NCBI GenBank assembly: GCA_018609195.1 | Contig: JAHCSE010000004.1 | Span: forward strand, 8,474 to 72,473 | DNA from: Patescibacteria group bacterium | GTDB taxonomy: Bacteria > Patescibacteriota > Minisyncoccia > Minisyncoccales > RBG-13-36-15 | Reading direction: 5' to 3' | DNA: 64,000 nt | Shown: piece by piece, positions 291 through 51,153 of the stretch | Numbering within the stretch: the stretch's first letter is position 1 | Layout: the number at the start of each line of letters is the position of its first letter | The notes under the pieces: generated by a model | The model's input: only the letters and a program-made list of their open reading frames with translations | Databases searched by the model: none | What the model was told of the DNA's origin: nothing | Position numbers and translations under genes: made by a program

Positions 291-809
291 ATGTCTAGAA
301 CTTTAATCACTGCGATTTGCCTGGGTTTAACTCTTATTTTGGGAATATTTTTCCTTTGGCCAAAATACCAGAGTTTTAAAAACCTCCAACTCCAACTTAA
401 AAATAAAGAAATTGAGTTTAGATATCAAGATGAATATTATCAAGAATTATTTTCCCTTTCAGAGAAATTAAAAGAATTTGAAACAGAGCTTTCAAATATT
501 GATTCAGCTTTACCCTCTAACCTTTCTTTGCCTTCTTTGTATAATTTCCTTCAAAAAACATCTTCAGAAAATGGATTGATTTTAAACAGTATAGGTTCTT
601 TTTCCCTTTCTCGCCTGCCTGAAAGAACAAATATTCAGTTAATCTCAATACCTATTGAAGTTTCAGGATCTTACCCTTCCCTTAAAAATTTCTTGAAGGC
701 TTTGGAAAAATCGACAAGAATAATTGAAGTTGATGGTATTTCTTTCTCCTCTCCTGAAGAGAGGGAACTATTTGGATTCAAATTAGGAGTTAAAACCCAT
801 TCTTACTAA
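291..809 (+). CDS. PilO-like type IV pilus assembly protein
   Basis: 172 aa. N-terminal TM helix (ITAICLGLTLILGIFFLW), then a coiled-coil segment and an alpha/beta C-terminal domain. Sits upstream of pilB in a pilus locus. Confidence 0.55.
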   Translation: MSRTLITAICLGLTLILGIFFLWPKYQSFKNLQLQLKNKEIEFRYQDEYYQELFSLSEKLKEFETELSNIDSALPSNLSLPSLYNFLQKTSSENGLILNSIGSFSLSRLPERTNIQLISIPIEVSGSYPSLKNFLKALEKSTRIIEVDGISFSSPEERELFGFKLGVKTHSY

Positions 810-2836: not shown

Positions 2837-2932
2837 TAGCTTGGGACTGGTAGCTGGTAGTTAGGGAATAGTTTTAATCTACAAGAAATCAATACCAAAA
2901 CTACTAGCTATCAACTACTAACTATAAAATTT

Positions 2933-3298
2933 ATGAAAACTATTTTATTAGTTGAAGATGATCCTTTCCTGACCGATCTTTATACTACCAGGTTAAAGGC
3001 AGCTGATTTCGAAATAGAAGTTGCTCTTACTGGTAAAGAAGGATTGGAAAAATTGAAAGAGCGGAAACCCGACCTTTTAGTTTTAGATATCGTTTTACCG
3101 ACTATTGATGGTTGGGAAATCCTTCAAGAACTTAGGAAAGATGAAAGATTTAATGATTTGAAAATCGTTGTTCTTTCTAATCTTGATCAAAAAGAAGATA
3201 TTAAGAGAGCCTTTGATTTTGAGGTGATGAAATATTTAATTAAAGCCCACTATACTCCAACCGAAGTAGTAGAGGAGATAAAGAAAATCTTAAAATAA
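2933..3298 (+). CDS. single-domain response regulator (receiver only)
   Basis: 121 aa. LLVEDD acidic pocket, phospho-acceptor context LLVLDIVLP, conserved K in MKYLIKA. No output domain. Confidence 0.85.
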   Translation: MKTILLVEDDPFLTDLYTTRLKAADFEIEVALTGKEGLEKLKERKPDLLVLDIVLPTIDGWEILQELRKDERFNDLKIVVLSNLDQKEDIKRAFDFEVMKYLIKAHYTPTEVVEEIKKILK

Positions 3299-3301
3299 AA
3301 T

Positions 3302-4369
3302 ATGGATTATTCTTCCCAACTAAAAAAATTACTCTCGCTGACTATTCAAGCTGATGCGTCTGATTTGCATATCTCAGTTGGCCATCCGCCCGTCTTGCGA
3401 ATTACCGGGAGATTAGTTCCTCTTTTAAAAGAAAAGAAAATTGTAGGAGAAGATTCTCAGGGTTTAGCTTTTGCTTTAATGACAGAAGATCAAAAATCAC
3501 GATTTTTAAAAGAAAAAGAAATTGATTTTTCCTATAGTTTTGAAAATCGGGTCCGATTCCGAATAAATATTTTTCATCAAAGTTCAGAAATTTCTATTGC
3601 CTGTAGATTGATACCAGCGAAAATTAGAACTATTGATGAACTAAACCTTCCTCCAATTTTGCATAATTTTACTAGACCTTCTCAGGGATTTATATTAATA
3701 ACTGGTCCTTCCAGTCATGGGAAGTCCACCACTTTAGCTGCACTTATTGATGAAATAAATCATACCAGAACAGATCATATAATTACCATTGAAGATCCTA
3801 TTGAATATGTATTTAAAGATGATAGATCGATTGTTGACCAGAGAGAACTCTATCAAGATACCTTATCTTTTGCGAGAGCTTTGAGATCCACTTTCAGAGA
3901 AGATCCAGACGTAATAATGGTTGGGGAAATGAGAGATCCTGAGACGATGGCAATAGCCATTACCGCTGCTGAAACCGGCCACTTAGTTTTTGCCACTTTA
4001 CATACTAACTCAGCCGGTCAGACCATTCATCGAATTGTTGACTCCTTTGCTTCTGGGCAACAAAATCAAGTTAGAGCTCAGTTATCTGCTTCTTTATTAG
4101 GCGTGATTTCTCAGAGGTTAATCCCTAGAACGAAGGGAGGATTGATTCCAGCTTGCGAAATGCTGATTAATACTCCAGCTGTTGCCAATTTAATTCGGGA
4201 AAATAAAATTCATGAAATTCCTTTAGTGATTGAAACTTCATTAGAAATAGGAATGATTTCCCTTAATCGCTCACTTGCCAGTCTGGTTAAGGGAAAAGAA
4301 ATTTCTTTTGATAATGCCTTACGTTATTCTTTAAATCCAGCTGAATTAAGAACTCTGGTCAGGAAATAG
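3302..4369 (+). CDS. pilT: twitching-motility retraction ATPase PilT
   Basis: 355 aa. Walker A GPSSHGKST, DPDVIMVGEMRD, TGHLVFATLHT. Size and lack of an N-terminal GspE domain are typical of PilT. Confidence 0.9.
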   Translation: MDYSSQLKKLLSLTIQADASDLHISVGHPPVLRITGRLVPLLKEKKIVGEDSQGLAFALMTEDQKSRFLKEKEIDFSYSFENRVRFRINIFHQSSEISIACRLIPAKIRTIDELNLPPILHNFTRPSQGFILITGPSSHGKSTTLAALIDEINHTRTDHIITIEDPIEYVFKDDRSIVDQRELYQDTLSFARALRSTFREDPDVIMVGEMRDPETMAIAITAAETGHLVFATLHTNSAGQTIHRIVDSFASGQQNQVRAQLSASLLGVISQRLIPRTKGGLIPACEMLINTPAVANLIRENKIHEIPLVIETSLEIGMISLNRSLASLVKGKEISFDNALRYSLNPAELRTLVRK

Positions 4370-10157: not shown

Positions 10158-10184
10158 GAGTATAATTGAATCCTCGGCTATAAT
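10156..10184 (+). promoter_or_regulatory. candidate sigma70-type promoter for ligA leader
   Basis: TTGAGT (10156-10161), 17 nt, TATAAT (10179-10184). Confidence 0.4.
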
Positions 10185-10188
10185 TAAA

Positions 10189-10330
10189 AGAGAACATAGG
10201 CCTCGTTACACTCGGCACTATGTTCTTTAGACACCCACGGTTTCTAACGTTTTCGTCCCTCGTTTCACTCAGGACGAAAGCCTGTTTTCCTACACGGAGA
10301 GATACCCAATCTCCCCGACCCCCTCTGTGC
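10189..10330 (+). repeat. structured repeat family, copy A (ligA leader)
   Basis: Contains TTAGACACC-CAC-GGTTTCTAA, hairpin TTCGTCC/GGACGAA, GAAAGCCTGTTTTCCTACACGG, hairpin GGAGAT-accca-ATCTCC and CCGACCCCC. The blocks are in the same order as in copies B-D. Confidence 0.8.
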
Positions 10331-10364
10331 TGTATCGAAATTATTGAAATTCCGATACAAAAAT

Positions 10365-14526: not shown

Positions 14527-17379
14527 ATGAATAATAAAGAAGAATCAAAATATATTTCTCTTCAGGAAGCTACAAAATACTGTTCCTATTCTCAGGATTA
14601 TTTATCTTTGCTGGCGAGAACCGGAAAATTGAAGTCAGTAAAGATTGGCAGGAATTGGGTGACTACCAAAGAATGGATTGAGGAATATATAGAAAGAGTG
14701 AAAGAGTTTAATAATTATAATCGGTTACCCAAAAAGAATCTCATCAGGGTTGAAGTTAAATTCGAGGAAGAGGAAATCTCAGAAAGTCCGTCCCCATTAT
14801 CTGAGTCTTCAGAGGACACTTCACCTTTTCAAGAGTTGCCAAAAGTTAGACAACCAGAGCAAGCCCCCCTCCTTATTTTAGCTTTTGCCCTGGTTTTTGT
14901 TTTACTGATAGCTGCCGGAATTTTTGGTAAAGAGAATTTCAAAAATGCTTTTCAACAGATCGATCCTTATGTAACAGCAATTAATCAAGAAGTTGATGAA
15001 GGAATTGTCCAAGGATGGAAAGGGATTCAGAAAGGGGTTCAGGGGATTGGTGGAGCTGGAGATTTTGTTTTTGAAGGGGCAGCTAAATCTTTTGAAGAAA
15101 GTTTTGTTACGGTCTCTAGGGATGCTTATCAATTCTCCCGGGAAGCTGTTTCCATGTTTGGAGAAATTACGGTTCTCGGTTCAGTAGGGGCTAATCAATT
15201 AGCTGAGGTTTCTCAGGAAATTCCAAAATCAATTTTGGAATCGATAAAAAACATTGGCCAATCAATAGGCCAAGGAACAAAAAATATGGCCTCTGGTATT
15301 AGTTCTCGGCTCTCAGGTTTGGCTCAATTCGTCAGCCAGCTTTTCAAAAGAGAAACACTGGTTAAAGTAGAAAAAGAAGTAATACCCGAAGAGTTAGAAA
15401 AAGAAATTGCTAAATTGGCAGATGAGATTGGAAAATTAAAACTGAGAGGATTTCCAGAAAAAGGTCCTCAAGGTCCTCAAGGTTCGCCTGGACCTCCTGG
15501 TCCTCAAGGTCTCTCCGGGCCTCAGGGCCCCACTGGTCCTCAAGGTCCCTCGGGCCCTCCAGGACCCTCTGGGCCTCAAGGAGTGGCAACTCTAGCTGCA
15601 CGTTTTGCAAATTTAAGCACCAATACCGTTTCCATCGGAGGTAATTTTGATTCTCTCAACATAGGAAGAGGGAATCTTACCGTTGATTCAGCTGGAAGTC
15701 TTACTACCTCAGGTTCTCTTACTGTTTCAGGAACAATTACAGAAGGAGGAACCTCCCTAACCTCCAAATATATTGGTATTCCCTCAGGCTCTACTCAGGG
15801 AGATGTTCTCTATTACAGTGGGGCTGCTTGGGCAAGATTAGCAGCAGGGAGCTCTGGCCAATTTTTACAAACCCAAGGTTCCGGAGCTAATCCTGTTTGG
15901 GCAACAGTAACTTCTGGTTCTACTCTCTGGACAGACGGAGGCACTGTAACTTATCTAACCGCAATCTCTGATGATCTGGCCCTGGGAGGAACTGATTCCA
16001 CTGCTCCCTTCTTCATGGATGTTTCAACTGGGAGCCTGGCACTCACTGGTTCTCTCACCGGAACCGTCCTCAACTTAACTGGTCTCACCAACCAGATTGT
16101 TTTAGATTCAGACGGAACAAACACTGGAACCTTAACCATGGCTTCTCTTTCTGCTTCAAGAACCTGGACCTTACCTAATGCTACCGGCACTGTGATCACC
16201 GCAGGAAACCTCACTGATATCACTTCTGTTACCGGGTTAAACACCCAAAATGCCCTCCAACTTGGTCCCTTCGGTTCCTCAGCAGGAAACACAGGAGAGA
16301 TCAGGTTCTTAGAACTTGCTGCCAGTGGTACTAACTATGTAGGATTTAAAGCTCCTGATGCCATTACCACCAATGTAATTTGGACTCTTCCTGCAGCAGA
16401 TGGCACAGCAGATCAGGTCTTATCCACTAATAGTTCAGGAGTTCTCTCCTGGGCTACTGCCGGAGGTCTCTTTACTGATGGCGGAACCACCACCTATCTG
16501 ACCTCAACCACTGATGATTTAGCCCTTGGAGGCACAGATTCCACTGCTCCCTTCTTCATGGATGTTTCAACTGGGAATTTGACTCTCACAGGTGATCTTG
16601 CTGTCAACGGTGGGGATATTACTTCAACTGGCGCACTTACAATCACGCCTGGAGCTGGAACCAACTTCAATATTGCTCTTTCAACCACTGGAGATTTTGC
16701 CGTCAACACCAATCAACTCTTTGTTGATACCTCAACCGGCCGCGTCGGCATCGGGACGGCGAGTCCAGCCTTCAAACTTGATGTGTTAGGCAGTATCAGA
16801 GCCTCGGACGCCTTTCTGTTCTTCGACGGCTCCACTCAAGCTATGGCAAGCACTCCCAGTGGATTTTCCTGGCGTGTCACTACAGCTTCCTTCCTCCAGT
16901 TATTTAACGTAGCAGGAGAGGAAACAAATCCCCGAGGCGTTTTCTTCAAGCCTGACGGAACAAAGATGTATATTATAGGACTTATTGGTGATGATGTCAA
17001 TGAATATAACTTGTCAACTCCCTGGGATGTCTCAACTGCTTCGTTCCTCCAGTTATTTAGCGTATCAGGAGAGGAAACAGTCCCTACAGGCGTTTTCTTC
17101 AAGCCAGACGGAACAAAGATGTATGTTATAGGGTCTACTGGTGATGACGTCAATGAATATAACTTATCAACTCCCTGGGATGTCTTAACAGCTTCGTTCA
17201 ACCAGTTATTTAGCGTGGCAGGAGAGGAAACAGTCCCTACAGGCCTCTTCTTCAAGCCAGACGGAACAAAGATGTATGTTATAGGGCAAAGTGGTGTTGA
17301 TGTCAATGAATATAACTTATCAACTCCCTGGAATGTCTTAACAGCTTCGTTCCTCCAGTTATTTAGCGTATTAGGATAG
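14527..17379 (+). CDS. giant surface-fibre protein, N-terminal part (HTH, TM, collagen-like, tail-fibre-like repeats, 51-aa repeats); ends at in-frame TAG
   Basis: 950 codons. N-terminal excisionase-type HTH ([46 protein letters not shown]), TM helix [22 protein letters not shown], 13 G-X-Y triplets, repeated [16 protein letters not shown] blocks. Confidence 0.85.
15463..15579 (+). repeat. collagen-like G-X-Y tract (13 triplets)
   Basis: [39 protein letters not shown], read in the gene frame. Confidence 0.9.
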
Positions 17380-17634
17380 GAAATAGTCCCTACAGGCGTT
17401 TTCTTCAAGCCAGACGGAACAAAGATGTATGTTATAGGGACTGCTGGTGATGAGGTCAATGAATATAACTTATCAACTCCCTGGGATGTCTTAACTGCTT
17501 CGTTCAACCAGTTATTTAGCGTGGCAGGAGAGGACACAGCCCCTACAGGCGTTTTCTTCAAGCCAGACGGAACAAAGATGTATGTTATAGGAGATAATGA
17601 TGATGATGTCAATGAATATGACTTAGGCCTTATC
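16870..17634 (+). repeat. five tandem 153-nt (51-codon) repeats inside the giant gene
   Basis: Units start at 16870, 17023, 17176, 17329 and 17482. Consensus W[DN][43 protein letters not shown]. Confidence 0.9.
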
Positions 17635-19395
17635 ATAGAAGGCAACGTCGGCATTGGGACGACGGGGCCGGGGTCCAAATTAGATGTTACTACCAACTCT
17701 CTGGGCATTACCCAGACTAATACTTCTGGCCTGGCTCTGGTCAATACCACTGCTGCTGCAGCTGGGTTGCAGCAGATATCCCCAGCTCTAAGGTGGAGAG
17801 GGTTTGGCTGGAAAACCGGTGGTCCTAACCCTGCTAGTCAGTCAGTCGACTTTAGATCTTTCGTGAGGCCAATTCAAGGAGCAGCCGCTCCCACGGGTGG
17901 ATTAGATTTTCAAAGCAGTATTAATGGTGGAGCTTACAGTGACTTGTTGACGATTTTAAGCACGGGCAACGTCGGCATCGGGACGGCGAGTCCTATAAAA
18001 AAACTCTCAGTCGCCGGTAAATTTTATTCACACAAAGACGCTGATATCACAGCCAGAAATTACCTCACTGATAATTCCTGGGTCTCCAGAACTTCAGCCG
18101 CTGACAATAGTTGGTTTGCCATAACCTGGTCTCCGGAGCTTGGCCTGTTCGCCGCCGTAGCTGACTCCGGCACAGACAACCGGGTCATGACCTCTCCAGA
18201 CGGCATTACCTGGACAATCAGAACTTCAGCCGCTGACAATGATTGGCTTGGCATAACCTGGTCTCCGGAGCTTGGCCTGTTCGCCGCCGTAGCTGCCACT
18301 GGCACAGGCAACAGGGTCATGACCTCGGTCAGCTCAAAATTGTCGCCTATGGTGAGCGTAGTAGCTGCTACGGACGACCGCGAAACTTTGTGTATAGCTA
18401 TCGGTGGCGGTGTTGTTACTAGAGATGCCGCAGGCAATGACTGCGACATTTCCTCTGCACGCTTCAAATATAATATTGAGGAACTTGATATTAACGGCAT
18501 TGACATCGTGAATTCTTTTAAACCTTCGTCCTTTATTAAAAATTCTGATAAGACAAACAGAATACAATGGGGATTTATTGCTGAAAATATTGCGGTAAGC
18601 AACCCACACCTTGCTTTGTATGACGAAGATGGTCTTCCGTATTCAATATCAAAGTATGGAATTATGGCGGTACTCGCCAAATCCATTCAAGAAATCTCCC
18701 AGCGCATAGATCTAACAGAAGAAAGCTTGGCATTCTTACAGCCTGACAGCCAACAGCCAGAAGGAGATTCTTTACTTGATGGTTTTGTTCAAAAAATAAA
18801 ACAAGCCTTAGCTTCCCTGGGGCTCGTAATTGAAAATGGAATTTTACAGGTTCAGAAATTAGTCGCAGGTGTTATAGAGACCGAAAATTTGAAAGTGGGA
18901 AGCCCAGAGAAGCCAACTGGCGTTACTCTCTATGATGAGGTGAGTGGTCAGTCATATTGTATTAAGATACGAAACGGGCAGATGGTAAGTTATGAGGGAG
19001 AATGCCAAGCAGGAAACCCTTCTGACCAAGCACTAACTGAAGAGCCGCCGGTTGAACAATCACCAGTAGAGCCATCTTCTACCGAACCACCTCCCACTGA
19101 GCCCCCGGTAGAGCCATCTCCAGCTGAGGAACCTTCAGGAGAACAACCCCCCACTGAAGAGCCTACGATTGAAGAACCACCAGCTGGACAAGAACCTCTG
19201 GTTGAAGAACCGCCAATAGGGGAGCCTCCATTAGAAGAACCACTTGCTGGAGAATCACCACCTACTGAGGAGCCACCAATTGAGGAACCACCTCCTTTAG
19301 AAGAACCACCAGCTGAGGAGGAACCTCCAGCTGAGGAACCCATAGTTGAAGAACCAGTTGTTGAGGAACCTGTTCTGGAGGAGCCAGCTGAATAA
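17425..19395 (+). CDS. giant surface-fibre protein, C-terminal part (same frame as 14527..17379; frame open from 17380)
   Basis: 656 codons. Contains VGIGT..P..KL.V tail-fibre motifs, two BNR/Asp-box-containing repeats (SPDGITW), an S74-type intramolecular chaperone signature (SSARFKYNIEEL...WGFIAENI) and a P/E-rich tail. Confidence 0.8.
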   Translation: MYVIGTAGDEVNEYNLSTPWDVLTASFNQLFSVAGEDTAPTGVFFKPDGTKMYVIGDNDDDVNEYDLGLIIEGNVGIGTTGPGSKLDVTTNSLGITQTNTSGLALVNTTAAAAGLQQISPALRWRGFGWKTGGPNPASQSVDFRSFVRPIQGAAAPTGGLDFQSSINGGAYSDLLTILSTGNVGIGTASPIKKLSVAGKFYSHKDADITARNYLTDNSWVSRTSAADNSWFAITWSPELGLFAAVADSGTDNRVMTSPDGITWTIRTSAADNDWLGITWSPELGLFAAVAATGTGNRVMTSVSSKLSPMVSVVAATDDRETLCIAIGGGVVTRDAAGNDCDISSARFKYNIEELDINGIDIVNSFKPSSFIKNSDKTNRIQWGFIAENIAVSNPHLALYDEDGLPYSISKYGIMAVLAKSIQEISQRIDLTEESLAFLQPDSQQPEGDSLLDGFVQKIKQALASLGLVIENGILQVQKLVAGVIETENLKVGSPEKPTGVTLYDEVSGQSYCIKIRNGQMVSYEGECQAGNPSDQALTEEPPVEQSPVEPSSTEPPPTEPPVEPSPAEEPSGEQPPTEEPTIEEPPAGQEPLVEEPPIGEPPLEEPLAGESPPTEEPPIEEPPPLEEPPAEEEPPAEEPIVEEPVVEEPVLEEPAE

Positions 19396-34472: not shown

Positions 34473-35540
34473 TTATATCTTAAACTCAATTACATCCCCG
34501 TCTTCCACAACATGATCTTTCCCTACTATTTTTAGCCATCCCAGTTCCCGGGTTCTTGGCCAAGCCGCCCCTGGCGAGCCTCGCCCTTCGAGGCGGGAAC
34601 CCGCCTCTATTAATTTGTCCCAACTAATTACTTCAGCCTTTATGAATTTTCCCTCAAAGTCAGAATGGACTTTTCCCCCTGCTTCTGGGGCCCTGCTTCC
34701 TTTCATTACAGTCCAAGCTCTTGTTTCTTTTCCCCCAGCTATCGTATAAAAAGTAATGAGGTCAAGAATATCGTAGCATTTTAAAATAAGCTGGTCAAGG
34801 GAACTTGAAATTTCAAGCTCTTTTAATTCTGAAGGATTTAATTCAGAGATTTCCTCTTCTATTTTGAGATTAAGGGGAATGAAATTTTCTCCTTTAAATT
34901 CAACATTCTTTTGATTAATATTTAAGACCAACACTTTTGGTTTTGCAGTTAAAAATTGGTATTCTTGAATTTCTGATTTTTCTTCTTCGGTTAAATCAAG
35001 ATCTGCAATTAACTTTCCTTCAGATACCGAAGCTTTAATTTTTTCGAAGATACCGATTTTTTTTAAAGCAATTTTACTTGAGGATTTGGCATCTTTTTCA
35101 AGTTTTTTTATTAAATTTTCTAATGTTTCTAAATCCTTCATTAAAAGTTCAACCTTTATTATCTCAATTTCTTTTTCTGGATTAATCTCTCCAAGAACAT
35201 TTTCAACTTCAGGATCGTTAAAGGTTCTCACCACCTCTAAAATGGCATCACAATTTCTGATATGGGCCAAAAATTGATTTCCTAGACCCTCTCCTTTGTG
35301 AGCTCCTTTCACTAAACCTGCAATATCAATAAATTCAATAACAGTGGGAGTGACCTTCTCCGGTTTAATAATTTCAGCAATTTTTTCTAATCTTTCATCA
35401 GGGACAATAACTACTCCAACATTAGGATGGATAGTAGTGAAAGGGTAGGCAGCAATATCAATTTTCTTTTTGGTTAAAGCTTTAAATAAAGTTGATTTGC
35501 CGACATTAGGTAAACCGACAATACCTATTGAAAAACTCAT
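34473..35540 (-). CDS. ychF: ribosome-binding ATPase YchF
   Basis: 355 aa. G1 GLPNVGKSTLFKALT, DIAGLVKGAHKGEGLGNQFL, C-terminal TGS-like VVEDGDVIEFKI. Confidence 0.9.
   Translation of the reverse strand: MSFSIGIVGLPNVGKSTLFKALTKKKIDIAAYPFTTIHPNVGVVIVPDERLEKIAEIIKPEKVTPTVIEFIDIAGLVKGAHKGEGLGNQFLAHIRNCDAILEVVRTFNDPEVENVLGEINPEKEIEIIKVELLMKDLETLENLIKKLEKDAKSSSKIALKKIGIFEKIKASVSEGKLIADLDLTEEEKSEIQEYQFLTAKPKVLVLNINQKNVEFKGENFIPLNLKIEEEISELNPSELKELEISSSLDQLILKCYDILDLITFYTIAGGKETRAWTVMKGSRAPEAGGKVHSDFEGKFIKAEVISWDKLIEAGSRLEGRGSPGAAWPRTRELGWLKIVGKDHVVEDGDVIEFKI
34548..34604 (-). repeat. GC-rich nested-palindrome mini-insertion in ychF (57 nt, encodes about RLEGRGSPGAAWPRTRE)
   Basis: CGGGTTC...GAACCCG, TTGGCCAA, CCGCC...GGCGG, GGCGAG-c-CTCGCC. 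Contains the exact 22-mer shared with ligA. Confidence 0.8.
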
Positions 35541-39425: not shown

Positions 39426-39607
39426 TGTACCAATTCGTCGCTCGCCCTCATCCAGCCTTACGGCTGGCCCGAGCACATAAATTATGTGCTCGGTTCGGGC
39501 TCGCTCCCCAGACACCCTCGGTTTCTGGCGTTCGTCGCTTCGCTCCTCACTGTTTTCCTACACGGGAAAACACCCAGTTTTCCCGACCCCTTTCTGAAGA
39601 ATGGTAC
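39426..39607 (+). repeat. structured repeat family, copy B
   Basis: 5' domain with hairpins CCAGCCTTACGGCTGG and CGAGCACATAA-at-TTATGTGCTCG. Then CCAGACACC-ctc-GGTTTCTGG, CTGTTTTCCTACACGG, GGGAAAAC-accca-GTTTTCCC and CCGACCCC. Ends pair as TGTACCA / TGGTACA. Confidence 0.85.
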
Positions 39608-39615
39608 AGACAAAG

Positions 39616-41634
39616 CTATTTCCATGCTCGCTTTGTCTTGATGTACCATTCTTCAATTCCGATAAATCTTTTTGAGGGGTCAGCGATTACTCCTTCTTCT
39701 ATTCCTTTGATTTCTCTGGATACAGGATAAAGATAATTAGGGGTGTATAAAAAGACAGCTGGGACATCAGTAATTAAAATTTCCTGGAACCTTTCATATT
39801 TTTCTCTTCTTTCTTCCTCATCAAAAATCTTTCGAGCTTCCTCTAAAATTTTATCCACCTCTCTATTTTCATAAAGTGCCAGATTCAATCCAGGGTCTTT
39901 TTTTTGAGAAGAATGCCAAAAAGGATAAGGATCCGCTATTAAACCTGTTACTTTGCCAAAGAGCAAAATTTCATAATTTCTTGATTCTAAGTAATCTTGC
40001 CGAAAAGTTGAAAGATCAAATTTTTTAATTTCAAGATCTACTCCTAATTTTTTCCATTGCTCCTTTAAGATGTCTGCTACCTGGGAAAGTTCCTCTTGAT
40101 CAACGGTAACTAAAGAAAGCTTTAAAATTAAGCGTTCCTCTGGAGCCTCAATACAAATTTCATTAAGTTTAGCCCGCGTCGTTTTACTCACTATCCCTGT
40201 TCCTGCTGTAAAACCCCAGGGGTCTAAAATATCTTCGGCATATTTTTCTTGAAATCTGATTACCGCCCCTTTCGTTTTTTGGCCAAAATAACCTGTAATT
40301 TGACCTTCAGGATAAATCTGGAAGTCTTTGGCTAGACAGGCCTGTAATTCTCTAACCTCTCCCCCCTGAGATCCAGATTTAAGGTCTAATGTAAAGAGAG
40401 AGGCTATTGCTTTTTTAAGAATTTTTTCCCTTTGACCATCTTGATCTTCATCCTTCCAGTTAGCTGCTTCTAAAATCTCTATTCCTTTTTCTAAATTAAA
40501 TGGGTAGATATTGAGAGGAGGAGAAAAAGCTGAGATTTCAGGAAGAAGAGGGGAATGAATTATTCTCCCTTCGTTAAAAAGGACCTCTTTAATAATCTCC
40601 TCTTTGTCAGTTCCATAATTTAAGGCTTTTCTTACCTCTTTTTCAGCTAAGATCTTTGAATTTTTGAGATTGAAAGAGAGATCAAAGTATCTTGGGAAAG
40701 AGAGTTTATGAATCTTAAATTCCTCTCGATTTAAACTTTGGGCAGATTTCGGCGATATTACTGATGCTCCTTTTATTTCTTTTTTTTCTAAGGCCTCAAT
40801 AAGATCTTTTTCTTCTTCAAAGAAATGGAAGGTAATTTCCCTAAGAAAAGGTTTTTTCCCGAAATAATTAGGATTTCTAACTACGGTTAAAGATTGAATA
40901 TACCCTAATTTATTTTTAGTTAAATTCTTAAATTGAAAGGGACCTGTACCAACTGGTTGAAGATTAAGAATGGCTAAAGGAAAATTCTGGGGAGGAATAT
41001 CTTGCCAGATATGTTTTGGCAAAACCTTCAGGGTTAAAGTTTCTAAGAAAGGAGGATAAGGATTTTTTAATTTGAAGCGAACTCTTAAGTCGGAAACTTT
41101 CTCAACTGTAACGCCGAGAAGAGAAGCGCGGATGGAACTTTTGTAATCTGGATCTTGAATTGTCTTTATAGTAAATAAAACATCTTCTGCCGAGAAAGGT
41201 TCCCCATCTGAAAAATAAACATTATCTCTCAAAAAAATTTCATATACTTTTCCCTCATCAGTAATTTTATATTCTTTAGCTAAGTCAGGAATTATTTCTC
41301 CTTCTCCATTGTATTTTAACAAGCCAGAGAATAAAAGCTCAGTTAAATCCCTGTCTACATCAGATGATGTCGCATAGATTGGATTGATAAATTGGGGTCT
41401 GCCAATTACGCCCTCCGTATACACTCCTCCTGGGGCTGGTTGAATTTTGGTATTTTGAAAATAAAAATTTAAAATCAAAAAGAGACCAGACGAAAACGCT
41501 AAAAAAAATAAGATAGAAAAAGCAATTTTCTCTTCTTTTTTAAAGACTTTTAGAGCCTGTCTCCACTGAGAAAAACTTGGGAATTTTCTTAGTTCTTGAA
41601 AAGCCAATTTAATTTTTCTTAATTGAAAAACCAT
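39616..41634 (-). CDS. family-5 (OppA/DppA-like) substrate-binding protein with embedded peptidoglycan-binding domain
   Basis: 672 aa with an N-terminal TM anchor and SBP_bac_5-like body. An insert at about 40180-40392 matches the PG_binding_1 pattern (GGEVRELQACLAK...GYFGQKTKGAVIRFQEKY...TRAKLNEI). Confidence 0.75.
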   Translation of the reverse strand: MVFQLRKIKLAFQELRKFPSFSQWRQALKVFKKEEKIAFSILFFLAFSSGLFLILNFYFQNTKIQPAPGGVYTEGVIGRPQFINPIYATSSDVDRDLTELLFSGLLKYNGEGEIIPDLAKEYKITDEGKVYEIFLRDNVYFSDGEPFSAEDVLFTIKTIQDPDYKSSIRASLLGVTVEKVSDLRVRFKLKNPYPPFLETLTLKVLPKHIWQDIPPQNFPLAILNLQPVGTGPFQFKNLTKNKLGYIQSLTVVRNPNYFGKKPFLREITFHFFEEEKDLIEALEKKEIKGASVISPKSAQSLNREEFKIHKLSFPRYFDLSFNLKNSKILAEKEVRKALNYGTDKEEIIKEVLFNEGRIIHSPLLPEISAFSPPLNIYPFNLEKGIEILEAANWKDEDQDGQREKILKKAIASLFTLDLKSGSQGGEVRELQACLAKDFQIYPEGQITGYFGQKTKGAVIRFQEKYAEDILDPWGFTAGTGIVSKTTRAKLNEICIEAPEERLILKLSLVTVDQEELSQVADILKEQWKKLGVDLEIKKFDLSTFRQDYLESRNYEILLFGKVTGLIADPYPFWHSSQKKDPGLNLALYENREVDKILEEARKIFDEEERREKYERFQEILITDVPAVFLYTPNYLYPVSREIKGIEEGVIADPSKRFIGIEEWYIKTKRAWK

Positions 41635-42272: not shown

Positions 42273-43628
42273 TTAATACCCAATCAAGGCCTTCCTTCTT
42301 AGTTTTCTATGGTAGCTTATTGCAAAACGGTGGGCTTCATCTCTCAGTTGTAAAATGAGATTGAAAATTGGGCGAGAAAGAATTTTTAGTAAAATGGGCT
42401 TCTTTCTGTTTTCTACATAAAGCTCATTTTTTCTCTTAGCTAAAGCTAAGACGCTGATTTTTGCTGATTTTAAGACTGATTTTCGCTGATATTTCTTAAG
42501 AACCTGTAAAGCTGCATTTAATTGGGCCTTGCCGCCATCAATTAACATTACATCTGGAAAAGGCCATTCAATATGCCTGAGCCTTCTTGATAAAATTTCT
42601 TTGAGCATTGCAATATCATTGGGTTTCTCCTCAATTTTTATTTTAAATTTCCGATAAAAATTTTTATCTGGCATGCCTTTTACAAATGTAACCATTGAAC
42701 CAGTAGCTTGTTTCCCTTGAATATTAGAGACATCATAGGCTTCAATTCGGGAAATTTGTTTCTTTGTTTTGAGAAGATTTTGCAGGATTTTTTGAATATC
42801 AGACCAATCTTTTTCTGGCATCAATTTTTCTTCCTTAAATATTTTAGCATGAGCAAAGACATTTTCCAAAGCTCTTATTTGATCTCTTATTTTAGCTGCC
42901 TTTTCAAAATCTTGGACTGAGCTTAAAAATTTCATTTCTTTTTTGAGGGTTCTTAAAACCGATTTTCTTTTCCCCTTCAAAACACTGATTACATATTTGA
43001 TATTTTTCCTGTATTCTTTTATATCAGGATCAGGCCCCGGACAAAGCCCTAAATTGCAATAAACACAGGGAGTTTTCGTGTGCGTTTTTGAGGTGTAGTA
43101 AGGGAAAACTCTCCTGAGAAATCGTAAAGTAAGCTTCAGCGGTCTCCCTATAACAAAAGGACCAATATAAATAGCTTTTGGGCTTGCCCGCCTAGTCCCG
43201 CCTCTTTTGGAAAGGGGCGGGATTTGGGTGGGTTGATGAGTGATAAAAATTCTTGGTAAATTTTCCTTTGTAATACCAATGTAAAAAAATTTTTTGTCAT
43301 CCCGCCAGATGACATTATATTTTGGCTGGTATTTTTTAATTAAATTTGCCTCTAAAATTAAAGCCTCAATTTCTGAGTCAGTTTTGAGGTATCCTACTTT
43401 TTGGACAAGATTTAAGAAAAGATTATCTCGAAAGCCTGGGTGTTGAAAATGATTCTTCACCCTTTCTCGGATATTTGAGGCCTTCCCAATATATAAGAAC
43501 CTTGACTTCGTCAAGAACCTTGAATGCTCCGCATTTAAAAATTCTCTACCTTGCTTAAAGGCATAAACCCCAGGACTTTTTGGCAAAATTTTAATGTTAT
43601 TTTTTGTGATGAATTTAAATTTCTCCAT
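42273..43628 (-). CDS. uvrC: excinuclease ABC subunit C (short form without C-terminal HhH2)
   Basis: 451 aa. GIY-YIG N-terminus (PGVYAF...LYIGKASNIRERVKNHF), UVR motif QDFEKAAKIRDQIRALENV, endonuclease domain ending RDEAHRFAISYHRKLR. Confidence 0.88.
   Translation of the reverse strand: MEKFKFITKNNIKILPKSPGVYAFKQGREFLNAEHSRFLTKSRFLYIGKASNIRERVKNHFQHPGFRDNLFLNLVQKVGYLKTDSEIEALILEANLIKKYQPKYNVIWRDDKKFFYIGITKENLPRIFITHQPTQIPPLSKRGGTRRASPKAIYIGPFVIGRPLKLTLRFLRRVFPYYTSKTHTKTPCVYCNLGLCPGPDPDIKEYRKNIKYVISVLKGKRKSVLRTLKKEMKFLSSVQDFEKAAKIRDQIRALENVFAHAKIFKEEKLMPEKDWSDIQKILQNLLKTKKQISRIEAYDVSNIQGKQATGSMVTFVKGMPDKNFYRKFKIKIEEKPNDIAMLKEILSRRLRHIEWPFPDVMLIDGGKAQLNAALQVLKKYQRKSVLKSAKISVLALAKRKNELYVENRKKPILLKILSRPIFNLILQLRDEAHRFAISYHRKLRRKALIGY
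43180..43232 (-). repeat. GC-rich palindromic mini-insertion in uvrC
   Basis: Plus-strand gggcttgcccgcctagtCCCGCCtcttttggaaagGGCGGGatttgggtgggt. Encodes about PPLSKRGGTRRASPK. Confidence 0.65.
43495..43523 (-). repeat. 18-nt-period direct duplication inside the GIY-YIG motif of uvrC
   Basis: AAGAACCTTGA cttcgtc AAGAACCTTGA on the plus strand, with palindrome CTTGAC-ttc-GTCAAG. Protein reads SRFLTKSRFL. Confidence 0.7.
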
Positions 43629-44807: not shown

Positions 44808-45725
44808 TTATGTTTGATCTGCGTATTGTTCAAGACCTTTTAACTTTTTAATAATGGAAATGGCTGCATTACAGCCCTCTCCTGCGTCTTTTGCAATCTG
44901 GGGGTTACCCCCAGTGGCGCCTCCTGCAGCATATACACCTTCTACCTTAGTGAAACTATCCTGATTAATGACAATAAATCCATCTTTTAAAGGAAGTTTG
45001 AGTTTTTCAGCAAAGGTTAAAGAAGGTGTCACCCCCAATGCTAAAAAAATTCCATCGAGGATTAGATTTTCACCATCGCTGGTCTCGGCCGCCTCCACAT
45101 TTTTTTTGCCTAAAACTTTCACAATTTTTTTCTCTTCAAGCTTTATTCCTTTTTCTCTTAGGTTCTTTTTTATATGTTCTGAAAATTTCCAAGGCCTCTT
45201 TTGGGAGAAAATAACGACACCCTTCGTAAAAGAAGTGAGTTCTAATGCTTCCTCAGCTGCATGATTCCCTTCCCCAATTACTGCGACTTTCTTGTCTTTG
45301 TAGAGAAAACCATCACATACGACACAAGTATGCACTCCTTTTCCTAAAAACTCTTTTTCTCCCTCAATTCCAGCCATAGTAGGAGCAGCTCCATTTGCAA
45401 TAATGATTGTTTTTCCGAAATATTCTTTACCCTCACCAGTTTTCATCTGAAAATCACCCTCTTTTTTTACTATATCTATAACCTCTTCCCGGAGAAGTTC
45501 TCCTCCATACCTTCTCATTTGCTCAACTGAATTTTCAAGAAGTGATAAACCTGTCGGCTCTCCTAAAATTCCAAAAATATTGCCGATTCTTTTTCCAAAA
45601 GCTAAATCTGATTCTTCTGGTTTTCCAATCACCAGAGTCTTTATTTGAGCTCTTGTCAAAAAGAGAGCAGCTTGCAATCCAGCCGGTCCCGCCCCAATAA
45701 TGATGGTATCAAAATTTTTGTTCAC
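44808..45725 (-). CDS. thioredoxin-reductase-like FAD/NAD(P) oxidoreductase
   Basis: 305 aa. GAGPAG FAD motif, redox pair CVVCDG (canonical TrxR has CATCDG), second dinucleotide fold VAVIGEGNHAAEEA. Confidence 0.8.
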   Translation of the reverse strand: MNKNFDTIIIGAGPAGLQAALFLTRAQIKTLVIGKPEESDLAFGKRIGNIFGILGEPTGLSLLENSVEQMRRYGGELLREEVIDIVKKEGDFQMKTGEGKEYFGKTIIIANGAAPTMAGIEGEKEFLGKGVHTCVVCDGFLYKDKKVAVIGEGNHAAEEALELTSFTKGVVIFSQKRPWKFSEHIKKNLREKGIKLEEKKIVKVLGKKNVEAAETSDGENLILDGIFLALGVTPSLTFAEKLKLPLKDGFIVINQDSFTKVEGVYAAGGATGGNPQIAKDAGEGCNAAISIIKKLKGLEQYADQT

Positions 45726-45805
45726 CTCATCTTTATAATAATCTCAAAAAAATAAAGGGTCAAACTAGCTTTTCTAGTGGTAAGACTTTAATCTCACCGC
45801 TTTTA

Positions 45806-45834
45806 TTGATTTTTTTGAAAATTTAATATATAAT
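45806..45834 (+). promoter_or_regulatory. candidate promoter for the uvrA leader
   Basis: TTGATT (45806-45811), 17 nt, TATAAT (45829-45834). Confidence 0.5.
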
Positions 45835-45840
45835 GGGAAA

Positions 45841-46047
45841 CTCAATATGCCTGAGTCGCGGCACGCGACACTTACCTTCGGCAAGTGCGCTATCACCGCT
45901 CCTTAGAAACCCACGGTTTCTAAGTATCACCCCAAATTCGCTTGCGCTAGAATTTGGGGACCCCGATTTTGGCGAAAGCCTGTTTTCCTTCACGGGAAAA
46001 CGCCCACTGTTCACACACAGCCCAGTTTTCCCGACCCCTTTCTCATT
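45841..46047 (+). repeat. structured repeat family, copy C (uvrA leader)
   Basis: Hairpins GTCGCG-gca-CGCGAC and CACTTACC-ttcg-GCAAGTG. Then TTAGAAACC-cac-GGTTTCTAA, CCCCAAATTC...GAATTTGGGG, GAAAGCCTGTTTTCCTTCACGG, GGGAAAAC-(23-nt loop)-GTTTTCCC and CCGACCCC. Confidence 0.85.
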
Positions 46048-46056
46048 TTCATTAAC

Positions 46057-48963
46057 ATGAAAAATAATTACATAAAAATTAGGGGAGCCAAAGTTCATAA
46101 CCTAAAGAATATTGATATTGATATTCCCAAAAATAAAATGGTGGTAATTACCGGGATTTCAGGATCTGGAAAGAGTTCTTTAGCTTTTGATACTTTGTAT
46201 GCAGAAGGCCAGCGCCGATATGTGGAAAGTTTATCTGCTTATGCCCGTCAATTTTTAGGTGTGATGGACAAACCGGATGTCGAAAGGATTGAGGGAATTT
46301 CTCCTGCTATTTCCATTGATCAGAGAAAGGCAGCCCATAACCCAAGATCGACAGTGGGTACCATTACTGAAATTTACGACTATTTAAGGTTATTATTTGC
46401 CAAAATTGGGAAGCCTCATTGCCCAAAATGTAAAAAGCCAGTTTCCAAACAGACCATTGATCAGATTACAGAGCAAATTTTAAAATTACCTAAAAAAACA
46501 GAGATTACAATTTTGGGACCAGTCATTCGGGGCAGAAAGGGAGAGCATCGGGGAATATTAGAAGAAATTCAAAGAGGAGGATTTGTGAGGGTGAGGATTG
46601 ATGGAATTTTATATCGGATTGAGGAAGCGCTAGAGCGAATTTTAGAGCGCAAGAAAAAACACAATATTGAAGTAGTGGTGGATCGAGTGGTGATTGAAAA
46701 AAATCTGGAACGGGCTCGTCTCGTTGATTCGATGGAGACTGCCCTAAAATTAGGAAAAGGCATAGCGATTGTTGGAGTTGTTGGAAATGTCCAATCAGCC
46801 TCCAACCCTGTTTTAAATATTCATCATCAACAGAGGAAACTAACCAACAAAGGAAAGCGATCAAACATCTCAGACATTATATTCAGCGAGCATTTTACCT
46901 GTGAAGAATGTCGAATTTCTCTACCTGAGTTAGAGCCGAGACTCTTTTCTTTTAATTCCCCCTACGGAGCTTGTCCGGCCTGTCAAGGATTGGGGGAGAA
47001 ATTGGAAGTTGACCCAAAATTAGTCATTCCCAATAAAAACTTAACCATAACTGAAGGAGCAATTCGTCCTTGGATGAGAGCCTCTCATAAATTAGGCCGC
47101 CAGAGTTATTTCTGGTGGCAGTTATCTGATTTATCTGAGAGAAGAAATTTTTCCTTATCCATCCCAGTTAAAAATTTATCCAAAAAGATTACCGATGTTA
47201 TTTTATATGGCGATGAGGAGTTTGAAGGAGTTGTTCCTTCCCTGGAAAGAAGATATCGCGAGACTGAATCAGAATATACCAGAGAAGAAATTGAGCAATA
47301 CATGATTGAAAAAAAGTGTGAAGCTTGCCAAGGAAAGAGATTAAAGCCCGAAGTGCTATCTGTAACCATAACTGGGAAATCAATTGATGATTTAGTCTCA
47401 ATAAGTGTAGATAGATTAAAGGAGTTTTTTGAAAAATTAATAAAAAATCGAGGAAATCTGTCCTCGAGTTTTAAAATTGCTGCCCCTATTATCAAAGAAC
47501 TTATCAATCGTTTGCAATTTTTGATTGATGTCGGTTTAAATTACTTAACTATTGATCGAAAGGCAGGGACTTTAGCGGGTGGTGAGGAGCAAAGAATAAG
47601 GTTAGCTACTCAAATTGGCTCAAAACTGACAGGGGTATTATACATTTTGGATGAACCCTCAGTTGGCCTCCATGCTAGAGATCAAGGAAGATTAATTGAA
47701 ACTTTAAAAAAATTGAGAGATTTGGGAAACACCATTGTGGTGGTAGAACATGATCCCCAGACAATTAAAGCTGCAGATTGGATAATCGATATAGGGCCTG
47801 GGGCAGGGGAACAAGGAGGAAAAATAACTTTTGAGGGTACACCAAAAGCACTTCTCAAGGCTCACACTTTAACTGGTGAGTATCTGGCAGGTAAAAAGAA
47901 AGTGGAAATCAAAGCTTCCCAGTCATCTGTCTCTAGTCAGACAAGTACAAAAAGCTCAGATCGGAAGGAGCTTATTATCAAGGGGGCAACAGAGCACAAT
48001 TTAAAAAATATCGATGTGAAAATTCCTTTAGGTAAATTTGTTTGTATTACCGGAGTTTCGGGATCTGGAAAAAGTTCTTTAATGAATGATATTTTAGCCC
48101 GGGCCCTTCTTCAAAAATTTTACAATAGCAAAGAAGGACCAGGAAGACACAAAGATATTTTAGGTTGGGAAAATTTAAACAAGATAGTTTTGGTTGACCA
48201 ATCACCAATCGGCAGAACTCCGAGATCTAATCCAGCTACCTACACAGGAGCTTTTTCTTACATGAGAGATCTTTTTTCTAAAACCAGGGAAGCCAGAATT
48301 AGGGGGTATCTGCCAGGTAGGTTTTCTTTTAATGTCAAAGGAGGAAGATGTGAGGCCTGTGAAGGTCAAGGAGTGAAAAAAATTGAGATGTATTTTTTAC
48401 CAGATGTCTATGTTGAATGTAAAGAATGCAAGGGGAAAAGATTTAATAAAGAAACTCTATCCATTGAATATAAAGGAAAAAATATTTCAGAGGTTTTAAC
48501 AATGACAGTTAAGGAAGCTCTTGATTTTTTCAAAGCAATTCCTGGTCTTTTCCAAAAATTAAAAACTTTAGATGAAGTTGGTTTAGGTTACGTTCAGCTT
48601 GGTCAACCTGCTCCTTCTCTTTCTGGAGGAGAGGCTCAGAGGGTAAAATTATCCACTGAGCTTTCCAGAAAGGCAACTGGAAAAACTTTATATATTTTAG
48701 ATGAGCCCACCACTGGTTTGCATTTTGACGATATTAAAAAACTTTTAAGGGTTTTAAGAGAATTAGTAGACCGAGGAAATACAGTTTTGATAATTGAACA
48801 CAATTTAGATGTAATCAAGAATACTGATTGGATAGTTGATCTGGGGCCAGAAGGCGGTGAGGAAGGAGGATACATTGTTACCGAAGGTGAACCTTTTGCG
48901 ATAATCAAAAATAAAAAAAGTTATACTGGAAAATATCTCAAACCAGTGTTGAGAAAAACTTGA
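46057..48963 (+). CDS. uvrA: excinuclease ABC subunit A
   Basis: 968 aa. Two ABC modules (GISGSGKSS, GVSGSGKSS; LSGGE signatures) and zinc-finger Cys clusters. Confidence 0.95.
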   Translation: MKNNYIKIRGAKVHNLKNIDIDIPKNKMVVITGISGSGKSSLAFDTLYAEGQRRYVESLSAYARQFLGVMDKPDVERIEGISPAISIDQRKAAHNPRSTVGTITEIYDYLRLLFAKIGKPHCPKCKKPVSKQTIDQITEQILKLPKKTEITILGPVIRGRKGEHRGILEEIQRGGFVRVRIDGILYRIEEALERILERKKKHNIEVVVDRVVIEKNLERARLVDSMETALKLGKGIAIVGVVGNVQSASNPVLNIHHQQRKLTNKGKRSNISDIIFSEHFTCEECRISLPELEPRLFSFNSPYGACPACQGLGEKLEVDPKLVIPNKNLTITEGAIRPWMRASHKLGRQSYFWWQLSDLSERRNFSLSIPVKNLSKKITDVILYGDEEFEGVVPSLERRYRETESEYTREEIEQYMIEKKCEACQGKRLKPEVLSVTITGKSIDDLVSISVDRLKEFFEKLIKNRGNLSSSFKIAAPIIKELINRLQFLIDVGLNYLTIDRKAGTLAGGEEQRIRLATQIGSKLTGVLYILDEPSVGLHARDQGRLIETLKKLRDLGNTIVVVEHDPQTIKAADWIIDIGPGAGEQGGKITFEGTPKALLKAHTLTGEYLAGKKKVEIKASQSSVSSQTSTKSSDRKELIIKGATEHNLKNIDVKIPLGKFVCITGVSGSGKSSLMNDILARALLQKFYNSKEGPGRHKDILGWENLNKIVLVDQSPIGRTPRSNPATYTGAFSYMRDLFSKTREARIRGYLPGRFSFNVKGGRCEACEGQGVKKIEMYFLPDVYVECKECKGKRFNKETLSIEYKGKNISEVLTMTVKEALDFFKAIPGLFQKLKTLDEVGLGYVQLGQPAPSLSGGEAQRVKLSTELSRKATGKTLYILDEPTTGLHFDDIKKLLRVLRELVDRGNTVLIIEHNLDVIKNTDWIVDLGPEGGEEGGYIVTEGEPFAIIKNKKSYTGKYLKPVLRKT

Positions 48964-49326: not shown

Positions 49327-49327
49327 C

Positions 49328-51153
<1,826 letters not shown>

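Follow-up and report, generated by a model that had tools for sequence, protein, structure and literature searches.

A Patescibacteria-wide structured repeat as a probable insertion in the first codons of a leaderless uvrA gene

The window analyzed here, a 64,000-nucleotide (nt) stretch of DNA from a Patescibacteria group bacterium, carries uvrA on its plus strand at 46057 to 48963 (968 amino acids [aa]; identified from the open reading frame [ORF] list and its UvrA Pfam domains) and, just upstream, a folded repeat element that we call copy C. A first-pass annotation made from the letters alone had described this element as the entire leader of uvrA, running from the start site of a TTGATT-17-TATAAT promoter to a point 10 nt before the ATG at 46057, and had noted another copy, A, in front of ligA. 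The promoter is indeed present at 45806 to 45834 on the plus strand (10 of 12 positions in a consensus scan, which returned 6 promoter-like sites in the 500-nt region at uvrA versus 1.2 expected). So are the ATG, the terminal hairpin formed by GGGAAAAC (45994 to 46001) and GTTTTCCC (46025 to 46032), and the CCGACCCCTTTC tag (46031 to 46042), all of which can be read directly in the sequence.

Copy C spans 45855 to 46042 on the plus strand, as delimited by its sequence, its fold (z = -5.8 relative to shuffled sequence), and a covariance model match at 45889 to 46044 (66.8 bits; E = 1.9e-14). It forms a G+C-rich block in an A+T-rich genome (~36% GC). From 5' to 3' it comprises a 5' hairpin module, hairpin H1 (CTTAGAAACC-CAC-GGTTTCTAAG; 45902 to 45924), a variable arm (V2), a conserved junction (TGTTTTCCTTCAC), hairpin H3 (45993 to 46033; purine-rich 5' strand CGGGAAAAC and 3' strand GTTTTCCCG, 9 pairs, with a loop that is enlarged in this copy), and a CCGA-CCCCTTTC tail. 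The pyrimidine part of this tail (46035 to 46042) mirrors the H3 purine strand and, from parallel covariation described below, is proposed to serve as the third strand in a triplex. The conserved part opens with GTCGCGG at 45855, not at the predicted transcription start, and stops 14 nt upstream of the uvrA ATG rather than 10. The element thus lies within the leader, as had been claimed, but does not fill it, as the 20 nt from the -10 box to copy C are not element sequence and represent the ancestral 5' end of uvrA, including its original start codon.

This relic start, ATG CCT GAG (MPE; 45847 to 45855, plus strand), was recognized by alignment with relatives. It lies 12 nt downstream of the -10 box, the same placement as in relatives, and matches ATG GCT GAG in L126 and ATG CCG GAA (MPEN) in L194 (loci from other genomes are given L numbers). 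Copy C begins directly after its third codon. The relic ATG opens a 19-codon ORF, MPESRHATLTFGKCAITAP (45847 to 45906, plus strand), whose stop codon, TAG at 45904 to 45906, falls within H1. On the other side of the element, a weak A/U hairpin, ATTTTCAT-TAAC-ATGAAAAAT, read from the sequence at 46045 to 46065 (plus strand), contains the replacement start codon, and native uvrA sequence picks up again at AAT TAC (46066), codon 4. The gene downstream of the element therefore reads ATG AAA AAT followed by AAT TAC ATA AAA ATT (MKNNYIKI), compared with MAENYIKI or MPENFIKI in relatives. We do not regard a 75-aa ORF across copy C as a credible coding sequence, because indels fall in the variable hairpins and it is the nucleotide sequence that is conserved.

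A metagenome scan provided 80 uvrA loci from relatives (63 to 79% amino-acid identity), mostly with conserved uvrA-groES-groEL synteny. No element was found upstream of uvrA in any of these loci by nhmmer or the covariance model, and only four of them (L128, L133, L137, and L184) contained elements, in every case at other positions. The layout in relatives consists of a TTGAA..TTTGGAGTATAAT promoter, ~11 nt, and then ATG GCN GAA AAT TAC (MAENYIKI), with the TAnAAT box ending 7 to 14 nt upstream of the ATG in 48 of 61 usable relatives (mode, 11 nt). From this promoter spacing, we infer that uvrA of relatives has a leaderless-type arrangement. The window promoter is orthologous to that of relatives (alignment A3, 13 relatives), and the sequence from 45796 to 45858 matches theirs base for base, followed by the equivalent of ATG GCN GAA. 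With a relic start codon upstream of the element, copy C interrupts uvrA rather than preceding it and is an insertion after codon 3, not a leader that evolved in front of the gene.

Several observations touch on this mode of expression. The TTTGGAGTATAAT-N11-ATG arrangement is strikingly conserved over ~60 species. Within the window, gene starts often lie 7 to 14 nt after TATAAT-like boxes (for example, 42273 to 43628 and 34473 to 35540 on the minus strand, and the genes at 43730, 7146, and 32173), and most genes have no Shine-Dalgarno motif. Leaderless or very short-leader mRNAs thus seem to be common in the source organism, as judged from sequence. On a separate point, in L184, a short and apparently permuted element copy (471 to 556, minus strand) lies in frame within the uvrA ORF, in the order CCCGACCCCC, H1, V2, TGTTTTTCC, and that UvrA gains ~24 residues; in-frame coding-region insertions of Rickettsia palindromic elements (RPEs) resemble this copy.

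A comparable arrangement was found at ligA, where copy A occupies 10192 to 10359 on the plus strand (model match at 10213 to 10328, E = 7e-17). A conserved ligA promoter, with its -10 box at 10179 to 10184, precedes the element in the promoter scan, so the order of promoter, sense-oriented element, and gene that had been noted at both loci holds. The upstream spacer of ligA is 269 nt in the window, compared with 12, 98, 29, and 34 nt in four relatives (72 to 76% LigA identity), and the element is absent from all four upstream regions. One of these, L201, is syntenic with the window (pilin genes, ligA, and ftsW) and has a terminator hairpin and TTTTTTTTGATTATAATTGAATCTCTGGTTATAATTAAAAAGGAATC, followed directly by ATG CAT AAA AAA GAA GCT. 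The window has an L201-like terminator and promoter up to TATAATTAAAAGAGAAC, then copy A, and then ATG ACA AAA TCC GAA GCC. L201 is thus an empty-site equivalent for copy A, which sits at the ligA start codon, in a gene of apparently leaderless type, just as copy C sits at the uvrA start. Microhomology is seen at the ligA junction (target GGAATCATG, element GAACATAG).

The first-pass annotation had raised a cis-regulatory role in two DNA repair genes and had pointed to orthologs in relatives as a check. The element being in none of the 80 uvrA and 4 ligA loci goes against that role. Its other suggestion, simple insertion, drawn from the contexts of two further copies (B and D), is borne out by the ancestral promoter and three uvrA codons kept upstream of copy C and by the ligA promoter kept up to the start codon. 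What uvrA and ligA have in common would be a promoter-proximal start and not repair function. Both repair genes were struck because transcription-unit ends, among them the opening codons of leaderless genes, are frequent landing sites of the family, and a repair regulon is unnecessary to explain the two copies.

To define the wider family, we scanned one genome per GTDB species for the pattern TGTTTTCCTNCACGG-N10-40-CCGACCCC, which returned at least 116 matching stretches compared with ~2 expected by chance. All named records among the listed matches were Patescibacteria/Parcubacteria-type metagenome-assembled genomes, often with several matches per genome, and there were no matches in viral contigs, which argues against a phage origin. 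As the sample is conditioned on the exact scan motifs, more divergent members surely exist, and the invariance of these motifs in our alignments is uninformative. The family is a repeated structured element of ~120 to 200 nt found across Patescibacteria. Rfam 15 returned two tRNAs only for the whole window at the gathering threshold, three chance-level matches to unrelated families for 45700 to 46200 at E <= 10, and tRNAs only for six related loci, and we found no description of such an element in the literature searched. As far as Rfam 15 and that literature show, the family is undescribed.

An all-against-all comparison of 208 ORFs flanking copies revealed no recurring protein family, and those beside the window copies are housekeeping genes. 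We accordingly rejected an autonomous mobile element (insertion sequence, group II intron, retron, or diversity-generating retroelement), as no transposase, reverse transcriptase, or recombinase recurs as a neighbor among these ORFs. Of the flanking ORFs, 150 (72%) lie on the strand opposite to the assigned "sense" of the element.

Structure was assessed on 114 distinct 3' halves (alignment A2) and 105 anchored cores. The 9-bp hairpin H3 is paired in 95.2% of cases in A2, with 174 double-change cells compared with 54.6 ± 5.9 in shuffles (0 of 500) and far lower counts in slid controls. The outer pairs of H1 covary across the 105 cores (T-A 89 and C-G 15 at one; T-A 93, C-G 6, and A-T 3 at the other). 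V2, a hairpin between H1 and the invariant TGTTTTCCTNCAC, is free in sequence and length, and its base pairs covary. The H1, V2, and H3 fold is therefore supported by covariation, although an aptamer-like fold alone does not define riboswitch membership.

A second, parallel relation links H3 to the tail, whose sequence mirrors the 3' strand of H3. In the 5' strand of H3, variable purines (A2 columns 17 to 19) track pyrimidines of the tail after CCGA (columns 47 to 49) in a G-C/A-T pattern, with 102 double-change cells compared with 44.3 ± 5.9 in shuffles (0 of 500), lower values in all slid registers, and paired fractions of 90%, 96%, and 81%; an independent count agrees. Because replication errors yield direct or inverted repeats and not mirror repeats, the natural reading of this relation is an intramolecular triplex, in which the purine strand, loop, Watson-Crick pyrimidine strand, CGA linker, and putative third strand follow one another. 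The triples proposed for copy C bring G45994 to A45999 together with C46036 to T46041. The covariation fits a pyrimidine-motif triplex on the uvrA-leader strand, a purine-motif triplex on the complement, or H-DNA.

The covariance model, trained on copies from other genomes and window copy B only, returned exactly four copies in the window (E = 3e-20 to 2e-14), in agreement with the four first proposed. Copy B lies at ~39437 to 39594 on the plus strand, or 39437 to 39662 with an adjoining long hairpin (model match at 39494 to 39596, E = 3e-20). Here the 3' end of a minus-strand solute-binding-protein gene (SBP_bac_5 domain) is paired with an inverted copy, GAAGAATGGTACA.., and a direct target copy, TGTACCAATTC, lies upstream of the element. 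The stop codon (39616 to 39618) and last codons of that gene lie within the long hairpin at 39595 to 39662, and the insertion may have reshaped the C terminus of the protein. Copy D (49329 to 49533, minus strand; model match at 49337 to 49457, E = 5e-15) fills the groES-groEL spacer antisense to the operon. This spacer is 210 nt in the window (49327 to 49536), compared with a median of 8 nt in 59 relatives. Antisense copies of different subtypes fill it in the window, L128 (6663 to 6831), and L032, so the spacer seems to have been hit repeatedly; the covariance model detected no element in the longer groES-groEL spacers of L166, L188, L146, L199, and L195.

Elsewhere in the window, two large ORFs at 14527 to 19395 (950 and 656 aa; 46 to 49% GC compared with ~36% for the genome) match collagen repeats, HTH_17, and Peptidase_S74 (endosialidase chaperone, tail-fiber type). 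From their composition and domains, they look like horizontally acquired or prophage-derived surface or tail-fiber genes.

Across the family, copies sit at gene ends with a recurring arrangement. About half are enclosed by an 8- to 21-bp stem whose sequence is different in each copy. In ~40 of 103 copies with enough flank, we observed a direct repeat (X1), the core, an inverted copy of the end of X (T'), a short loop or spacer, a second direct repeat (X2), and the gene body, which is always downstream in the element orientation. The repeat X is 11 to 115 nt long; direct repeats are missing in about half of the copies. This target duplication rebuilds the interrupted gene end, which explains the survival of such insertions. 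Sense insertions at gene 5' ends include those in fusA of L019 (X of ~96 to 115 nt, ending in codon 21), a GT4 glycosyltransferase gene in three or four species (L064, L114, L017, and L058), a gene for a protein of ~650 to 690 aa (L095 and L119), and a small gene beginning MAKKCAICGK (L008). Antisense insertions at gene 3' ends include those at fusA of L010, the solute-binding-protein gene at copy B, and ~39 tRNA genes. Most targets are genes of typically high expression, namely those for tRNAs, EF-G, GroES/EL, and ribosomal protein L11.

The inverted copy T' can pair either with the upstream duplicate, closing the core, or with the downstream original, including the start codon in L008; the downstream partner usually lies outside the ribosome-binding region (L019 and L064). 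The upstream duplicate X1 (L064, L114, L017, and L058; L095 and L119; L019) keeps the promoter, start codon, and N-terminal coding segment, and its differences between species fall mostly at third codon positions. This pattern points either to gene conversion between the duplicate and the real gene or to translation that runs from the duplicate into the element.

In the ~39 tRNA-linked copies, a convergent tRNA gene follows 45 to 85 nt downstream, on the opposite strand, and at least 14 isoacceptor types are represented. Upstream of the element, the flank is complementary, in reverse, to the final 15 nt (11 cases) or 18 nt (8 cases) of the tRNA; downstream, it repeats in sense the T-loop and the 3' strands of the T and acceptor stems. 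The closing stem is built from acceptor and T stems, with a T-loop-like GTTCGAWTC on the 3' side, giving a tRNA-minihelix-like helix. This subclass includes L006, L016, L022, L029, L033, L035, L043 to L045, L050, L055, L061, L062, L070, L072, L077, L079 to L081, L085, L088, L089, L094, L107, L110, and others, with tandem copies at some loci, such as L094.

We rejected three explanations for these flanks. Native tRNA terminator hairpins are not pre-existing targets, as 69 element-free tRNAs have no inverted copy downstream. A tRNA intron or split tRNA, an idea raised by GTTCGAATC-like flanks, was not found by ARAGORN with introns enabled; the flanks copy only the last 15 to 18 nt of an intact tRNA on the other strand. 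A retroelement primer-binding site does not fit either, as the flanks follow the gene trailer (TTG, not TGG, in L085 and L094) and not a CCA end.

Taken together, we think it likely that copy C is an insertion of a Patescibacteria-wide structured repeat into a leaderless uvrA and that the family is a nonautonomous mobile element. The ancestral uvrA would have been leaderless or nearly so, with an extended -10 promoter ~11 nt upstream of the ATG. The element would have landed in the sense orientation after codon 3, stranding the promoter and ATG CCT GAG upstream, and a replacement ATG (ATG AAA AAT) at the 3' edge of the insert would have restored full-length UvrA with MKN in place of MPE. Transcription probably still begins at the ancestral promoter, near 45841, so that the uvrA mRNA would open with the relic ORF and the folded element. 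Translation of uvrA would then proceed without a Shine-Dalgarno sequence, from an A/U-rich stretch past H3 and the tail, where a weak hairpin (ATTTTCAT/ATGAAAAT) could cover the new AUG. Any change in uvrA expression would be a by-product of the insertion. The same process may account for copy A at the ligA start codon.

More generally, the family would target transcription-unit ends, in sense at the first codons of genes and in antisense at the 3' ends of tRNA and protein genes. Insertion would duplicate the gene end, leaving the gene intact, and add a short inverted copy of the target, with which a stem forms around the element. The variable-length duplications, inverted copies with 4- to 12-nt loops, and junction microhomology point to copying and not to cut-and-paste scars. 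Copying might involve template switching or fold-back by a polymerase at a nick or nucleic-acid end, which is the least certain step of this proposal. We considered staggered nicks, Campbell-type circle integration, snap-back priming, and templated-insertion end joining, and derived from these no single scheme for all junctions.

It is also important to point out what weighs against this interpretation. Both the uvrA transcription start and read-through of the element are predicted from sequence. We found no recent near-identical pair of copies and no strain-level empty site, and mobility is therefore deduced from how copies are distributed and from the scars at their junctions. At copy C, neither a target duplication nor a closing stem is clear, and the proposal does not account for the 3' piece of this copy, TCATTTTCATTAACATGAAAAAT. 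The two strands fold with equal energy (-31.3 and -31.9 kcal/mol), H3 mismatches are A.C in 18 cases and G.U in 8, V2 is more stable on the complement strand in 70 of 86 cases, and UUCG-type loops occur on both strands, which favors no single strand, nor RNA over single-stranded DNA. Finally, orthologous GT4-linked copies in L064, L114, and L017, whose flanking proteins are 60 to 89% identical, keep the fold and carry a one-pair H3 change matched in the tail. These matched changes hint at selection on inserted copies, so that a host-level role for them is possible.

This last observation is also an argument for the family as a host-functional structured RNA or module (a transcript-end stabilizer, insulator, terminator, or tRNA-linked small RNA), with copy C merely abutting uvrA. 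Such a role would fit the strong orientation bias if it were exerted on the strand co-transcribed with neighbors, and closing stems beside tRNAs are still identical to the acceptor and T stems of the tRNA, while the adjoining trailer-derived sequence has decayed. We nevertheless consider it unlikely, as copies hold no conserved position relative to any gene class, the same sites are empty in most relatives, and both the duplicated targets and the broken gene starts are scars of insertion.

Alternatively, the conserved structure could be that of DNA, with hairpins in single-stranded DNA recognized in trans by an HUH (Y1) transposase, as for a palindromic repeat of the REP/REPIN, PATE, or RPE-like type. 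Y1_Tnp-like (IS200/RAYT-like) genes encoding 221 to 245 aa do occur beside ligA or uvrA in related genomes (L200:23-688, L202:6-671, L203:1-666 and 2738-3413, and L130:3191-3799), which keeps a DNA-level mechanism a live rival, and their products are possible trans-acting enzymes for small repeats in those genomes. The equivalence of the two strands in energy and mismatches, the capacity of a mirror repeat to form H-DNA, and the tolerance of an in-frame coding-region copy, as with RPEs, are all in its favor. Tested as an IS200/IS605-derived PATE or REP-RAYT system, the family has the hairpins; however, it shows target duplications of 11 to 115 nt with site-specific sequence and no fixed target motif, whereas IS200/IS605-type elements make no target duplication and use a fixed short target. 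There is also no Y1 gene in the window or beside any of ~120 copies. In L200 and L202, a REP-like palindrome, TTGGACATGCGATGTCCAA, lies between the Y1_Tnp-like gene and ligA; this palindrome differs in sequence from the element. We regard this explanation, too, as improbable.

A further and rather doubtful alternative is exaptation, in which the insertion now modulates uvrA, through translation of the relic ORF remodeling the fold or through a hairpin over the new AUG. The relic ORF does open at the old leaderless AUG position and end within H1, pairing of ATTTTCAT with ATGAAAAT is possible across the start codon, and an identical 332-nt spacer is found on all seven contigs bearing this exact UvrA, from several samples. 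Against this, the AUG region is unpaired in the minimum-free-energy fold of the copy C leader, the hairpin at the start codon consists of just 7 A-U/G-C pairs, and comparison offers no support, as the element stands in front of no other uvrA examined.

A dedicated cis-regulatory leader (riboswitch-like or stress sensing) evolved for uvrA and ligA is very improbable: the sense placement between promoter and start codon at both genes, the multihelix junction core with conserved joining strands, and an alternative fold in which the invariant UGUUUUCC could pair with the H3 purine strand (A-U and G.U) in 93.6% of cells, which covariation cannot test, would all suit it, but the element is absent from the orthologous leaders and keeps no conserved gene-class position, the relic start codon shows a gene interrupted and not preceded, flanking genes are heterogeneous and predominantly on the opposite strand, and copies also occur beside tRNAs, antisense in groES-groEL, and in frame within a uvrA.

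Among known systems, interspersed structured repeats (RPE, MITE, REP/REPIN, and BOX) are, by analogy, the closest kind. Like these and Correia elements, the family consists of ~100- to 200-nt, self-complementary sequences with no ORF and many copies per small genome, and like RPE-type repeats, copies are intergenic, lie beside RNA genes, occasionally fall in frame in coding regions, and are co-transcribed with neighbors. In contrast to RPE-type repeats, the family lacks element-borne terminal inverted repeats and a short target duplication of constant length, has long variable direct duplications plus an inverted target copy, spans a phylum-level radiation and not one genus, and possesses a covarying multihelix core with triplex-type mirror covariation. 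A MITE in the strict sense was rejected, as the enclosing inverted repeats differ per copy and are target derived, and the direct repeats are 11 to 115 nt long, with about half of copies having none.

The tail resembles the third strand of triplex RNAs (ENE/MALAT1, SAM-II, preQ1-II, and telomerase) in running parallel to the purine strand with a U.A-U/C.G-C pattern at the 3' edge of a conserved element, a likeness in base pattern only. Unlike these RNAs, the family has a simple hairpin, a CGA linker, and a C.G-C-rich third strand, with no A-rich tail or U-rich internal loop, and it is known here from sequence, in which RNA and DNA are not told apart. Non-LTR retroelements, SINEs, and variants of the Neurospora retroplasmid share target duplications of variable length and host sequence copied into the junctions, tRNA 3' ends among it, and non-LTR/SINE retroelements also share a structured RNA as the conserved part with the enzyme supplied in trans. 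However, no reverse transcriptase was found near copies among the 208 flanking ORFs, the tRNA flanks match gene plus trailer and not mature CCA-ended tRNA, and nothing in those systems corresponds to the inverted copy of the target. The two-way pairing of the inverted copy recalls the competition between P1 and the expression platform in riboswitch leaders, but the family has no conserved gene association or ligand, and most copies are antisense to their neighbors. To our knowledge, no known transposition mechanism leaves scars like these, in which a gene end is duplicated over a long and variable length and the target, often a tRNA, is also copied in inverted form.

A bolder proposal, to which we attach little confidence, is that the family is a mobile folded RNA with an intramolecular triple helix, copied by template switching or fold-back. 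It would act as a self-installing riboregulatory cassette at transcription-unit ends, in a single step duplicating the gene end, so that the gene survives and its promoter is captured, and producing a target-derived closing helix that could also pair with the gene start or end. A large tRNA-linked subclass would mimic the acceptor/T-arm minihelix.

At the level of this locus, an apparent riboregulator of repair genes gives way to a documented event, in which a repeat split leaderless uvrA and ligA from their promoters. With a new start codon in place of the old one, uvrA survived, an illustration of how insertions into the starts of essential genes are tolerated in streamlined genomes. We find the element family more interesting than the uvrA case itself, as it is undescribed, Patescibacteria wide, and marked by unusually clear triplex-type covariation. 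If the element is RNA based, it would give access to the biology of reverse transcription or template switching, and to leaderless gene expression, in a very large radiation that is uncultured.

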